35,237 nucleotides of DNA from a bacterium (GTDB lineage: Bacteria > Zhuqueibacterota > Zhuqueibacteria > Oceanimicrobiales > Oceanimicrobiaceae). Positions 1,941 through 17,895 of the stretch are shown piece by piece. A program made the position numbers and the translations under genes. The DNA lies in assembly GCA_046757165.1 (NCBI GenBank), contig JBHHXT010000032.1, positions 1 through 35,237 of the forward strand. Reading direction: 5' to 3'. Under the pieces are notes generated by a model. The model ran no database searches. It was given only the letters and a program-made list of their open reading frames with translations, and had not been told where the DNA came from. The number at the start of each line of letters is the position of its first letter. Position 1 is the stretch's first letter.

Positions 1941-2495
1941 ATGCAGAAATTAATTCGAGAGGTATTAATAGCAATCGGTGAAAATCCGGAGCGCGAAGGA
2001 CTGGTCAAAACGCCTGTGCGCGTAGAACGGTCGTACGAATTCTTGACCAGCGGCTACGGGGAAGATCCTTGCAAGATTCTGGAGAATGCCCTGTTCAATG
2101 AAAGATACGACGAGATGGTGGTGGTGCGGGACATTGAGCTCTATAGCCTGTGTGAGCACCATCTCCTCCCCTTTTACGGCAAATGTCACGTGGCCTATAT
2201 GCCCAACGGCACCGTTGTCGGTCTGAGCAAGATTCCGCGTGTCGTCGACATCTTTGCCAAGCGGCTGCAAGTGCAAGAGCGCTTGACGAATCAAATCGCT
2301 GACATCATGATGCAGTGCCTGAAACCGCAAGGCGTGGGAGTCGTGGTCGAAGCACGCCACCTGTGTATGATGATGCGCGGTGTACAGAAACAAAACACCG
2401 TCGTCAGTACCAGTGCATTGCGGGGCATCTTTCGCGATAATCTCCCGACGCGGCAGGAGTTTATGCAGCTTATCAAACCGCAGAGGTATGTCTAA
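1941..2495 (+). CDS. folE: GTP cyclohydrolase I
   Basis: [60 protein letters not shown] before ATG 1941. Confidence 0.97.
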
Positions 2496-2565
2496 CTATT
2501 GTGTGTAAGCGGCTCGAGAATCAATTCTTGTAAATCAAGGGTCAACAGAACCTGGAGGAGACACC

Positions 2566-3252
2566 ATGGCTAAGTTAACCTATCTCAGTCACGCCGCATT
2601 CCTGCTGGAAAGCGACGGCAGCACGATTTTGATCGATCCCTTTCTGAGCGGCAACCCGCTGGCGGCGGTCAAGCCCGAAGACATCCGCTGTCATTACATC
2701 CTGCTGACGCACGGCCACGGTGACCATATTGGAGACACGGTCGCCATTGCCAAACAGAACAACGCCACGGTCATCTCGAACTACGAGATCGCGACCTGGT
2801 GCACCAAGCAAGGATTGAGCGCACACGCCATGCACATCGGTGGGGCGCACGATTTCTCCTTTGGCCGGGTCAAACTCACCATCGCTCATCATGGCTCGGG
2901 GTACGATAGCGGGGATGGCATGGTATACCTGGGCAATCCGGCCGGCGTTCTCATCACCGTCAACGACAAGACCCTTTACCACGCCGGGGACACGGCGCTA
3001 TTCTATGACATGAAGCTGATCGGCGAAATGAACGCCATCGACGTGGCGCTGCTGCCCATCGGCGACAACTTCACCATGGGCATCGACGACGCTGTCAAAG
3101 CGGTTGAATTTCTCAAGCCCAGGCTGGCGGTCCCGATGCACTTCAAAACCTTTGACCTCATCGATGTCAACCCGGAAGAGTTCGTCAGAAAGGTGCAAGC
3201 CATCGGTAAAGAGGCGCAAATACTCGCTATCGGCGGTGAGCTGACGTTCTGA
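2566..3252 (+). CDS. UPF0173 metal-dependent hydrolase (metallo-beta-lactamase fold)
   Basis: LIDPF, THGHGDH metal motif, YHAGDT, LPIGDNFTMG, PMH; GGAGGAG RBS. Confidence 0.93.
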   Translation: MAKLTYLSHAAFLLESDGSTILIDPFLSGNPLAAVKPEDIRCHYILLTHGHGDHIGDTVAIAKQNNATVISNYEIATWCTKQGLSAHAMHIGGAHDFSFGRVKLTIAHHGSGYDSGDGMVYLGNPAGVLITVNDKTLYHAGDTALFYDMKLIGEMNAIDVALLPIGDNFTMGIDDAVKAVEFLKPRLAVPMHFKTFDLIDVNPEEFVRKVQAIGKEAQILAIGGELTF

Positions 3253-3256
3253 GCCG

Positions 3257-3838
3257 TTACGACTGATAGTAAGGGTTCGTCCCGCCCGCGTGGTCGGTCA
3301 CATCCATCACTCCCTTGAGCTCGGGCACCGCCTCTTTGAGCATCACCTCGACGCCTTGCTTGAGGGTTACGTCAACCATGCCGCATCCCTGGCACCCGCC
3401 ACCGAAGCGTAAATACGCAATGTCGTCCCGAACGTCCACCAGGGAGACCACGCCACCATGGCTGCGGATGGCAGGATTGATGCGGGACTGGAGCACCTGC
3501 TGCACTTTCTCGGCCACCGGTCCGCTTGGCCTCGGAGGGCCGGCCGTATTGGGGTTGGTGATCTTGAACCCGCTTTCGTTCAACGAAGACACATAATCCA
3601 CAATGGCACCATCGAGCAAGGGCGCGCTCTGGGGATCGATATAGACCTGGAAGCCGTCGAATTCGATGACCTTGTCCGCCTCGCTCTCCTCGCCCGGCGC
3701 AACGAACGACAGCCCATACTCCACCGAAAACGGCGAGGCGCCGCGTGCCGCAGTCACCCGCAGACCGGAGCCCCGTCGTTCTTCCTCATCGAGGATGGAA
3801 AGGAATTTGTTCTTCGCGGTGTCAGTGATGGTTATCAT
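3257..3838 (-). CDS. nfuA: Fe-S biogenesis protein NfuA (degenerate A-type carrier domain plus NifU C-terminal domain)
   Basis: ITITDTA...GLRV...GFKITNPN N-terminal domain lacking Cys, then INPAIRSHGG...FGGGCQGC...VMDVTDHAGGTNPYY; GGAGG RBS supports start 3838. Confidence 0.9.
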   Translation of the reverse strand: MITITDTAKNKFLSILDEEERRGSGLRVTAARGASPFSVEYGLSFVAPGEESEADKVIEFDGFQVYIDPQSAPLLDGAIVDYVSSLNESGFKITNPNTAGPPRPSGPVAEKVQQVLQSRINPAIRSHGGVVSLVDVRDDIAYLRFGGGCQGCGMVDVTLKQGVEVMLKEAVPELKGVMDVTDHAGGTNPYYQS

Positions 3839-15313: not shown

Positions 15314-15544
15314 TCAGCTCAAAGCAAGGAATTTCACCATCTCATCATCCAGAAATTTGCCGTGCTCGTCATTGAGCGGGTCCAGGCGATACTCATTCAT
15401 CAACATAAGCTGCTGGCCGACCCAACTCTGCCAGCACCCTTCGCACGTCTGCTGCAACACCTTCTGACCCAATTCACCGGGAAGCGGCGCTTCGCTCAAG
15501 GCGGGGGTATCCTGCTTGCATTTTGAACAATGCACAGTGGCCAT
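15314..15544 (-). CDS. yggX: Fe(II)-trafficking / oxidative damage protection protein (YggX family)
   Basis: TVHC...PLPGELGQKV...WQSW...QLMLMNEYRL...FL..EM.KFL. Confidence 0.85.
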   Translation of the reverse strand: MATVHCSKCKQDTPALSEAPLPGELGQKVLQQTCEGCWQSWVGQQLMLMNEYRLDPLNDEHGKFLDDEMVKFLALS

Positions 15545-15659
15545 AACGATTCAGGGGGTTAGAGTGTTAGGCTGTAGGTTGATTAAGTTTTGGGCAATGC
15601 TCCAGTGCCAAAACCGTTTCAGTCTCTTATTATTCTTATTATTCTTGACTCGCAGTGGT

Positions 15660-15688
15660 TATGTAACGGAAAATCTCAAGAAAGTCAA
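15660..15688 (-). promoter_or_regulatory. sigma70-type promoter for yggX-aldehyde dehydrogenase
   Basis: Minus strand TTGACT-17 nt-TACATA. Confidence 0.5.
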
Positions 15689-15726
15689 GCGATTTCAGCC
15701 GGGCTTCACTCTTTAAAAAAACGTCA

Positions 15727-15743
15727 TGTTTCAATCTGAAACA
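15727..15743. promoter_or_regulatory. perfect palindrome TGTTTCA-ATC-TGAAACA, candidate enhancer-binding-protein site (UAS)
   Basis: 7-3-7 dyad of TGT-N11-ACA form, ~140 bp upstream of a -24/-12-like element. Confidence 0.6.
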
Positions 15744-15882
15744 GTGTCAGGAAATGAACGCCAGTTTTTGCGAAATTCTAATAATATTATAACGATATCT
15801 TCGATCACAATATCGGCTTAACTATCTGCAACTATAGATCTTATATCGTTTTTGTCGACTCCCCATATTGCCAAAACAATCG

Positions 15883-15897
15883 TGGCACAAAAGTTGT
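15883..15897 (+). promoter_or_regulatory. sigma54-type -24/-12 promoter (TGGCAC-AAAAG-TTGT)
   Basis: Matches TGGCAC-N5-TTGC except for the last C to T. It points towards a terminator with no convincing protein gene in between. Confidence 0.55.
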
Positions 15898-15908
15898 TAA
15901 GAACTTAT

Positions 15909-16022
15909 CGAACATGACGAAAGAAAAAGCAAGGGCGTTGTCTTGCTTCAGCATAAAAGTTGATTAAAGTTCTCCATCCACCCCTCCTTTCCCTAAACGG
16001 CGGAACTTAGTTCCGCCGTTTT
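15909..16022 (+). ncRNA. candidate sigma54-dependent small RNA (~110 nt)
   Basis: Promoter upstream, internal hairpin AAGCAAGG/TCTTGCTT (15927-15948), C/U tract TTCTCCATCCACCCCTCCTTTCCCT (15970-15994) and a 12-bp terminator. The 5' end is inferred. Confidence 0.55.
15995..16022. terminator. intrinsic terminator, potentially bidirectional
   Basis: AAACGGCGGAAC-TTA-GTTCCGCCGTTT(T) perfect stem; sits 10 nt past the stop of the minus-strand DUF4097 gene. Confidence 0.85.
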
Positions 16023-16032
16023 GGTTTCTCCT

Positions 16033-16818
16033 TTATCCCCCTTCCAGGATTCGGATTCCACCATTTGTCGTGTGCAAGACAATTCGTCCCCCGCCACCGT
16101 TGATTTCGCCGCGTATCTTTCGCCGGCTCATTTCCCCCTTGACCTTCATCGGAAAATCTGTTCTCACACGGCCGTTGGTGGTCCTCGCTTCGATGTAAGC
16201 GCGAAAATCACGGGGAAACGAGACTTCAATGCCACCATTTGTGGTCTTGAAATACATATCTTCGTCCTGGTCATAGTCGACAAGTTCAGCTTCAATTCTG
16301 CCATTGGTTGTCTTGGCTTCGATTTGCCCCCTGGACTCGATGATACGAATACTACCATTGGTACTGTGCGCACCAATCTTTCCGCGCAGGTCCGAGACCC
16401 GGATCTTGCCGTTGACCGTGCTGACGTGCAAGTCGAGCTCACGCGGCGCGGTGATACGGTAAGAAACCGTTACGTTTATCCCTCGTCCAAAAAGTGCGTT
16501 CCAGAAGCCATCGTGAAACCTGGGATAGTCAGTTTCGATCTCGAGAAAGTCATCCTCATGCTTTATGTGAATGCGTACCCGTTCCATGATTTCCCGGGCT
16601 TCACGACTGCTTCCAGCTCGTACAACCTTTTCGGCCACAACCCGCACCTCGTCCCGCTCCCAGGTATCAACGACGACTTCCCCATTGGTATTGCTGACAA
16701 CCACTTTGCCGCCCGTCCTCATGGGATAGGTCTGCTCAAATGTTTCACGATGCGTACCCGCCAGCACGCTACCCTGGAACAGGAGCAGGCCGCTTATGCA
16801 GAGAATCTTGAAACGCAT
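16033..16818 (-). CDS. DUF4097 family beta-strand repeat protein
   Basis: Signal peptide, repeated (S/T)TNGxI units, VSYRITAP, GEINGGGGRIVLHTTNGGIRI; AAGGAGG RBS before ATG 16818. Confidence 0.88.
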   Translation of the reverse strand: MRFKILCISGLLLFQGSVLAGTHRETFEQTYPMRTGGKVVVSNTNGEVVVDTWERDEVRVVAEKVVRAGSSREAREIMERVRIHIKHEDDFLEIETDYPRFHDGFWNALFGRGINVTVSYRITAPRELDLHVSTVNGKIRVSDLRGKIGAHSTNGSIRIIESRGQIEAKTTNGRIEAELVDYDQDEDMYFKTTNGGIEVSFPRDFRAYIEARTTNGRVRTDFPMKVKGEMSRRKIRGEINGGGGRIVLHTTNGGIRILEGG

Positions 16819-16880
16819 CGGTCCCTCCTTACTGTTTAGAGTCTGAAGAATTGTGGAAAGAAAAGTTAAGGCAAGCACAA

Positions 16881-17864
16881 TCAATTGCCCTTGAGAATAA
16901 TATTGCCATCGTCTGTTGTCGCTGTCAGGCGAGACTCCGCGCGACCCAGCACCCCATTCAATCTCTCACCGTCCTCGCCCCACTCGTGTATCGAGAACGC
17001 AAAGTCGGAGCGGATGCGGCCGTCTGCAGTGGTGAGATCGAGCGAGACGTTGCTCTCTTCAGACAGGGTGATGAGAATGTGGCCTTCGTCCGTAGACAGA
17101 CGGCACCGGCCTTCCGACGGGAGCTGAAGCTCCACCTCGACGTCTCCTTCGTCGGAGGAGATTCTACAATCTCCCGTTTTGACCTGGCTCACCATGATAT
17201 CGCCTTCATCGCTTCCAAGCTGGACATCACGCAATTCACAATTGACAAGCCGGATGCCTCCTTCATCAACGGAAAAATCCAGGCGTGAGCCGGGACCGCG
17301 GATGGTTTCGCATTCAACATCTCCCTCATCCAGGCGCAGTCTGACATCGACGGCTTGTAGATCCTTCAACGTGACATTGCCTTCATCCACCTGCAAATCC
17401 AACCGTCCTGAGACCCGCGAGACCTCCACGTCCCCCTCATCATTCTCAATTCTTAGCCTGATTCTTGCCGGAACAGTCAACTCATAATCGATCTGGTAAC
17501 TGGTGTGGTGACGCCACCGATTCGAATCGAATAGGTCGGCGAATCTGAAGGAGTCGTGACCATGCATCGCCGCTTCTTTAATGAAGAGCCTGTCGGCGGA
17601 ATGATCGATCTTGACGAACAGTTCTTCCATCAGCTCCTGCGCGCGGCGTTTATCCTGCTCCCAAACCGTCTTCGTAATTTTGAGATGGACTTCATCTCTG
17701 TCCCATGAGCTCACCGTTATGCGTCCCTCGTCACCGATGACTGTGACCGAGCCCCCTGTGCGCATTTGAAACCGTTTTTCCTCGACTTCCTTGATCTGGG
17801 CGGCAGAAAGACTCCACCAACAACTGAGCAGACCAAAAGAAAACAGCAAAATCCTTCTTCTCAT
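16881..17864 (-). CDS. DUF4097 family beta-strand repeat protein (acidic DEG repeats)
   Basis: Signal peptide, IDYELTVP, repeated xDEG(D)V/I units, TTDDGNII; GGAGAG RBS. Confidence 0.85.
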   Translation of the reverse strand: MRRRILLFSFGLLSCWWSLSAAQIKEVEEKRFQMRTGGSVTVIGDEGRITVSSWDRDEVHLKITKTVWEQDKRRAQELMEELFVKIDHSADRLFIKEAAMHGHDSFRFADLFDSNRWRHHTSYQIDYELTVPARIRLRIENDEGDVEVSRVSGRLDLQVDEGNVTLKDLQAVDVRLRLDEGDVECETIRGPGSRLDFSVDEGGIRLVNCELRDVQLGSDEGDIMVSQVKTGDCRISSDEGDVEVELQLPSEGRCRLSTDEGHILITLSEESNVSLDLTTADGRIRSDFAFSIHEWGEDGERLNGVLGRAESRLTATTDDGNIILKGN

Positions 17865-17895
17865 TTTTCTCTCCACAAATCTTGTCAAATATTAT

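Follow-up and report, generated by a model that had tools for sequence, protein, structure and literature searches.

A predicted sigma-54-type small RNA gene with an invariant anti-Shine-Dalgarno-like tract in Calditrichota

The locus and its elements

The window analyzed here is the whole of a stretch of 35,237 nucleotides (nt) of contig JBHHXT010000032.1 (GenBank assembly GCA_046757165.1), from a bacterium placed by GTDB in the family Oceanimicrobiaceae. An intergenic gap, flanked by a YggX-like gene and by the nearer of two tandem DUF4097 genes, all on the minus strand, carries on its plus strand what appears to be a gene for a small RNA (sRNA), with a dyad and a sigma-54-type promoter at one end and a C-rich tract and an intrinsic terminator at the other. 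An initial annotation of this DNA had described a palindrome, an AT-rich spacer, a promoter string, a hairpin, a pyrimidine tract, and a terminator in the gap and had read them as the transcription unit of a new sRNA; all of these motifs were found at the positions it gave. The elements and the flanking genes are as follows.

15314-15544, minus strand: YggX-like gene (PF04362)
15545-16032: intergenic gap between the YggX-like gene and the first DUF4097 gene, both on the minus strand
15727-15743: upstream dyad TGTTTCA-ATC-TGAAACA, 156 nt 5' of the promoter, a predicted enhancer-binding-protein site
15744-15774: second conserved block, GTGT(A/C)A..AACGCC..TTTTTGCGAA, directly 3' of the dyad
15775-15882: AT-rich spacer from the dyad block to the promoter, not conserved in sequence but roughly kept in length
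15883-15897, plus strand: sigma-54-type promoter TGGCAC-AAAAG-TTGT, with GG-N10-G spacing and a T replacing the consensus -12 C
15909-16029, plus strand: predicted sRNA of about 119-121 nt, its start taken from promoter geometry and its end from the U-tail of the terminator
about 15928-15947, plus strand: 5' stem-loop GCAAGG...CTTGC, common but dispensable
15970-15994, plus strand: C-rich tract TTCTCCATCCACCCCTCCTTTCCCT, 25 nt, of which 23 are pyrimidines; a predicted single-stranded seed
15973-15992, plus strand: tract core TCCATCCACCCCTCCTTTCC, invariant, including CCTCCTTTC
15995-16029, plus strand: intrinsic terminator with a 12-bp stem, a 3-nt loop, and a U-rich tail (perfect stem at 15995-16021, then TGGTTTCT)
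16033-16884 and 16881-17888, minus strand: tandem DUF4097/LiaG-like genes

The gap has a G+C content of 39.5% and the dyad-to-promoter spacer one of 32.4%, compared with 52.2% for the whole window. The pattern TGGCAYN5TTGH occurs four times in the window, against an expectation of 0.79, and a count of four was reached in 2 of 100 shuffles. Since a promoter-like string alone is not rare, the case for a gene rests on comparison with other genomes: each single motif is weak evidence, whereas the joint conservation of the motifs is strong evidence.

Conservation of the unit and structure of the predicted RNA

An ordered set consisting of the dyad, an AT-rich spacer, TGGCAY-N5-TTG(T/A), a variable 5' part, the invariant C-rich tract, and the terminator was conserved in all of the genome loci compared (32/32), which come from a single Calditrichota class and represent at least three of its families. 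Metagenome contigs, scanned for exact matches, yielded 45 loci, from which 7 identical to genome loci and 1 duplicate were set aside. Among the 37 distinct loci left, the ordered arrangement, with promoter and hairpin, was present in 34, and the other 3 were unrelated chance matches with neither. Retention of this arrangement in 32/32 genome and 34/37 metagenome loci indicates that it is not due to chance. The promoter, dyad, C-rich tract, and terminator are thus kept together across genera and families, as the initial annotation had anticipated for a functional unit.

A DNA search of 40 relatives detected the tract and hairpin in every same-family genome (20/20, representing 17 genera), with 80-97% identity, and gave weaker matches in both genomes of a second family (2/2). 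Exact copies of the tract 20-mer were found at 19 loci, labelled as Caldithrix, Calditrichaceae, and candidate division KSB1 metagenome-assembled genomes (MAGs), with several described only as "bacterium." Two carrier MAGs that group in the same family (L031 and L037) are titled "uncultured Cytophagia bacterium," which is probably a labelling issue. A covariance model built on the 3' module (R1) was run on 151 genomes sampled across the phylum and matched 42 of them, once per genome. By family, the matches numbered 17/17 (f1), 12/14 (f10), 9/10 (f8), 1/17 (f9), and 2/12 (f11, weak), with zero matches in the other 20 families sampled. Both the DNA search and R1 find the element in a single copy in each carrier genome, and a repeat or mobile element was ruled out on this ground.

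If transcription starts 12 nt past the -12 element, the RNA is predicted to span 15909 to about 16027. The initial annotation had proposed a plus-strand RNA of about 110 nt beginning near 15909; the strand and start are retained here, but the prediction for the length rises to about 119 nt. Predicted lengths across the loci compared range from 88 to 157 nt. The minimum free energy (MFE) of the window RNA is -36.3 kcal/mol (z = -3.85 relative to shuffles), and in its predicted fold an A/U-rich linker joins the 5' hairpin to the tract, which is largely unpaired and is followed by the terminator. In 26/32 loci, the MFE fold leaves at least 14 of the 17-18 core bases unpaired. Similar GCAAG/CTTGC hairpins occur in many same-family loci. 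In three metagenome loci (L187, L200, and L213), the tract begins just 44 nt from the promoter's first base, and the resulting RNA, of about 75 nt, would have no 5' hairpin, indicating that the hairpin is dispensable.

The terminator stem, 12 bp with 7 G-C pairs, is followed by TGGTTTCT. In an alignment of 58 distinct sequences that was fitted to the model and therefore favors structure, 98.8% of cells were paired, against 44-64% in slid controls, and compensatory change was seen in 4/12 pairs; such changes point to selection on an RNA. A TTTTGGTTT-like U-rich tail follows the hairpin on the plus strand in all loci, whereas on the minus strand it is followed by TTT only. A small plus-strand protein was ruled out as the product, as no open reading frame (ORF) of at least 30 amino acids (aa) covers the tract on that strand and the frames are closed just upstream. 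Rfam gave no match at gathering score in the window, the outcome that the initial annotation had named as support for novelty; at E <= 10, only eight weak and unrelated matches fell within positions 15500-16100, led by sraA with 22.9 bits, where the gathering score is 56.

Promoter, upstream sites, and a candidate activator

The promoter pattern TGG(C/T)A(C/T)-N5-TTGN was present in 32/32 genome loci, its first base lying 59-121 nt 5' of the tract core, and the promoter-tract distance in the 34 metagenome loci was 44-117 nt. The -12 element reads TTGT in 25 genome loci, TTGA in 6, and TTGC in 1; among the metagenome promoters, it reads TTGT in 28 and TTGA in 6. The GT in place of GC at this position had been entered as a caveat in the initial annotation. 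Because a non-C base is kept across loci, GT is better regarded as a conserved property of the promoter than as a defect of one copy. In the genome that contains the window, TGGCAY-N5-TTGN sites fell outside long ORFs, a compartment making up 11.4% of the genome, in 35/62 cases when N was C, 19/53 when T, 17/62 when A, and 1/51 when G, and two other promoters beside the same dyad likewise read TTGT. The enrichment of the T and A sites outside long ORFs suggests that both are used variants in this organism. The caveat is thereby softened, although the consensus C is still missing.

Both components needed to serve such a promoter, whose presence had been named as a check on the proposal, are encoded in the genome: rpoN, by one Sigma54_DBD match (215 bits), and enhancer-binding proteins, by 53 Sigma54_activat matches, of which 47 are strong (E <= 1e-46). 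The dyad, defined strictly as TGT(T/C)TCA-N3-TG(A/G)(A/G)ACA, was located 114-166 nt 5' of the promoter in 26/32 genome loci; the six misses include one locus with too little upstream sequence and two with degenerate copies. It was also present in 32/34 metagenome loci. The -24 element, the genomic complement of rpoN and activators, and the upstream site fit a sigma-54-dependent promoter, with activator binding to the dyad as a prediction. We consider it highly probable, on these comparisons, that the locus is a real, independently transcribed sRNA gene under sigma-54 and activator control.

The second block after the dyad is visible in same-family loci, and in six relatives it was matched by BLAST at query positions 167-234. 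An additional activator site and a bending site are two possible roles for it. In other families, TTTTGTAATTG stands just 5' of the dyad in place of this block.

Four dyad sites in all were found in the 6.09-Mb genome. One of them (C366:325-341) lies 212 nt 5' of a gene for a response regulator of REC-AAA+-HTH (NtrC-type) architecture (G000:C366:537-1907), and a TGGCAT-N5-TGGC promoter lies between this dyad and the start of the activator gene (locus L071). Orthologues of the activator at 62% identity or more have a dyad 194-229 nt upstream in 10 of 11 cases, the eleventh having too little upstream DNA, while a dyad preceded none of the 14 paralogue-level best matches (<=59% identity). The position of the dyad upstream of the activator gene, and its retention in orthologues, make this regulator a candidate cognate and self-regulated activator. 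We infer that the C366 response regulator recognizes the dyad both at its own gene, which it would activate, and at the sRNA gene, whose transcription it would drive; self-activation is probable. The 35-kb window itself contains no activator gene. A TolB-like beta-propeller gene follows the C366 activator at 2146-3306.

Two further dyads lie on contig C12 (G000:C12:28030-29360; L070 6031-7357), each about 100 nt 5' of one of two divergent TGG(C/T)ACAGTATTTGT promoters. Downstream of one of these promoters are genes for a TPR protein of 555 aa and then for a Ser/Thr kinase, and the other promoter faces an operon for five proteins that belong to no Pfam or NCBIfam family. A looser dyad pattern, searched over 21 genomes of the family, gave 90 matches against 18 for a reversed control. 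Among 29 of these roughly 90 sites that were retrieved, some lie upstream of genes homologous to the TolB-like propeller gene or to the C12 cluster. In NCBIfam, the candidate activator and the proteins of its putative regulon were all below cut-offs or unmatched, and the activator falls in no named equivalog.

Proposed action of the RNA and its relation to known systems

Twenty bases of the tract, TCTCCATCCACCCCTCCTTT (positions 15971-15990), are invariant in 20/20 same-family sequences, while the sequence upstream of them varies in both content and length. Other families retain the tract core, although L067 and L068 lack one of its C residues. The 3' tail of 16S rRNA, as read in family members, is GGATCACCTCCTTTCT, and the tract shares with it the exact 9-mer CCTCCTTTC, to which it adds more C. 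In the genome that contains the window, GGAGG is enriched 4-8 nt 5' of candidate starts, indicating that a subset of genes uses Shine-Dalgarno (SD) sequences. Complements of the tract 10-12 nt long occur near ribosome-binding sites (RBSs), for example on C127, C112, C258, and C146, none of them shown to be conserved. Hfq was not found in the genome, and one CsrA gene was. The 9-mer match to the 16S tail, the use of SDs, the RBS-proximal complements, and the lack of a detectable Hfq together make Hfq-independent pairing with G-rich SD and start-codon regions the most likely mode of action, a mode established for RsaE/RoxS C-rich motifs (PMC6158497).

In the model that we propose, the phosphorylated NtrC-type response regulator (candidate G000:C366:537-1907) would bind the dyad and open the sigma-54 promoter, giving an RNA that starts near 15909 and ends near 16027. 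This RNA would act in trans, its invariant unpaired C-rich tract pairing with SD and start-codon regions and blocking ribosome binding. As no Hfq was found, pairing is proposed to be independent of that protein. Among SD-led mRNAs, the RNA would target a subset whose extended SDs are G-rich (GAAAGGAGGGG...), and it would belong to a small regulon with envelope-type genes, namely those for the TPR protein, the TolB-like propeller, and the operon without family assignment. It is likely that the locus is a sigma-54-type gene not listed in Rfam for an RNA of about 120 nt that acts in trans through pairing of its tract with SD and start regions, and occlusion of the RBS as its action is a reading in which we place moderate confidence.

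Several observations weigh against this account. The transcript, both of its ends, and its dependence on sigma-54 are all deduced from sequence, and the consensus -12 C is missing in 65/66 loci, with the spacing and the G kept in all. Only 11/20 same-family genomes have a clear C366 orthologue, and the best activator matches in families f10 and f8 have no dyad. No conserved mRNA target was found. The best non-self genome match to the 23-nt complement of the tract has five mismatches, and near-complements to a 16-mer were not in excess in the genome that contains the window (47, against 38 for a reversed control). Over 21 genomes of the family, 16-mer complements with up to three mismatches were about as frequent as in a reversed control, and among the matches listed, which came from six genomes, those with zero or one mismatch were at the sRNA locus itself. 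Two energy rankings over ORF starts, noisy because the gene calls were crude, were dominated by spurious frames, and no target was drawn from them. A small membrane protein gene on C146, complementary at 18/23 positions, was rejected as a core target, since only 4/20 relatives have a homologue and these do not preserve the pairing. The start regions of both DUF4097 genes and of the RluD-like, YggX, and aldehyde dehydrogenase genes gave -4 to -12 kcal/mol, with no meaningful duplex. Finally, the 20-nt invariance exceeds what a simple SD seed needs, and for this reason a decoy, or mimic of the 16S tail, is kept under consideration.

As such a mimic, the RNA would titrate a factor that recognizes the anti-SD tail, such as a ribosomal protein or a maturation or modification enzyme, or would pair with G-rich rRNA or pre-rRNA, retuning translation globally. 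The exact tail 9-mer in the tract and a flanking ATC.ACC order that resembles GGATCACC lend themselves to this idea, as do the cross-family invariance over 20 nt and the lack of a specific conserved mRNA target. Exact complements of the tract in rRNA reach 7-8 nt at most, and a universal G-rich stretch of 16S rRNA, GGAGGAGGGUGGGGAUGA (at about E. coli position 1180; read in L214, on G001:C185), forms a predicted duplex with the tract at -28.3 kcal/mol, stronger than any site in 23S or 5S rRNA. Against these points, each RNA has one copy of the motif, whereas known protein sponges have many; no protein emerged as a candidate binder; in mature ribosomes, the 16S 1180 region is structured; and the likeness to the tail includes three inserted C residues. 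We regard action as a 16S mimic as unlikely overall. Its strongest form, a global translation switch in which the RNA, as a decoy, rivals 16S rRNA for all strong SDs or sequesters a 16S-tail factor, seems a shade less likely again. If true, it would mean that a two-component signal shifts the whole translatome from SD-led toward SD-less mRNAs in a lineage in which only a minority of genes uses SDs.

Other explanations look to the neighborhood of the tract rather than to distant partners. The RNA might act mainly in cis on the convergent DUF4097 (LiaG-like) operon, either as a perfect antisense to read-through transcripts or as a bidirectional terminator, and the gene immediately downstream is indeed a convergent DUF4097 gene in 11/19 same-family loci and in 10/12 loci from other families, with a perfect, palindrome-like stem usable on both strands. 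The hairpin as nothing but the DUF4097 terminator had been the alternative of the initial annotation. It is not borne out, for 8/19 same-family loci have no adjoining DUF4097 gene and retain the unit intact, and the U-tail is on the plus strand. Cis antisense pairing, moreover, requires no invariant sequence, and a role of the RNA chiefly in cis strikes us as improbable. The minus strand itself offers GGAAAGGAGGGGTGGATGGAGAA, a perfect SD and ATG (AGGAGG-5 nt-ATG-GAG), from which translation of a very short ORF or leader peptide could begin beyond the DUF4097 gene; small ORFs do follow, that in the window having 9 codons (MENFNQLLC) and overlapping the start of a 37-aa ORF (15841-15954). Beyond Met-Glu-(Asn/Lys), these ORFs share neither sequence nor length, running from 6 to about 30 codons. 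With no conserved peptide, the minus-strand SD and ATG (15954-15980) are judged to be a mirror image of the seed; nor is there a conserved minus-strand promoter or downstream gene, whereas the promoter, dyad, and U-tail are conserved features of the plus strand. We give this reading very little credence. Least plausible of all is that the tract is a DNA-level protein-binding site, or a spacer conserved by chance, beside an unused promoter-like string. Such strings are indeed not rare in the window, but 66 loci show four separate elements that co-vary in position, with variable distances between them, and the compensatory changes in the stem speak for an RNA.

sRNAs that depend on sigma-54 and sRNAs with C-rich anti-SD motifs are both known kinds, and the Calditrichota RNA matches none of their models. 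The Vibrio Qrr1-5 RNAs are driven by sigma-54 and the NtrC-type regulator LuxO and have a long invariant single-stranded seed and a terminator; they require Hfq and exist in several copies. The Calditrichota RNA differs from them in that no Hfq was found, in its single copy per genome, and in the lack of an Rfam match (RF00378), and the Qrr seed is not anti-SD-like as the tract is. RsaE and RoxS are controlled by redox and two-component regulators on ordinary promoters, in contrast to the sigma-54 and enhancer-binding-protein control predicted here. The long linear tract of the Calditrichota RNA is single, whereas RsaE (RF01820, with no Rfam match to this RNA) has duplicated C-rich motifs in loops. 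The C-rich motifs of the highly conserved RsaE/RoxS family pair with G-rich SDs and prevent formation of the initiation complex (PMC6158497), and RsaE/RoxS and the staphylococcal UCCC-motif sRNAs act without Hfq (PMC8216469). Pxr of Myxococcus xanthus and relatives appears to be transcribed from a sigma-54 promoter, adjoins the response regulator gene nla19, and folds into stem-loops (PMC5568312), and the Northern probe given there implies a C-rich stretch with CCACCCC, a string also present in the Calditrichota tract. The targets of Pxr are still not known (PMC11928866). Pxr (RF01812) belongs to a different phylum, and its covariance model gave no match at E <= 10. The pxr gene lies directly downstream of nla19, whereas the candidate activator here is on another contig, with none in the 35-kb window; the predicted seed of the Calditrichota RNA, unlike Pxr, is a linear tract before the terminator.

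No regulatory RNA described for Calditrichota was found in the literature searched, and a search joining sRNA, C-rich, Shine-Dalgarno, and sigma54 gave no relevant paper, as judged by title. The preferred reading of the locus, an sRNA that would pair with SD and start regions, would provide the first handle on posttranscriptional control in this phylum. It offers a complete and testable circuit predicted from sequence, in which a candidate self-regulated NtrC-type regulator would act through the dyad on a sigma-54 promoter with a lineage-typical nonconsensus -12 element to produce an RNA of about 90-160 nt with a 20-nt invariant anti-SD-like tract. That this invariance is longer than a normal seed raises the question of 16S-tail mimicry.

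A shared hairpin or a relationship in cis may underlie the linkage with DUF4097. On the other side of the gap, the YggX gene and an aldehyde dehydrogenase gene are upstream in only 8/19 same-family loci. The DUF4097 "toastrack" genes are weakly LiaG/LiaX-like, and their linkage to the RNA gene is kept in three families.

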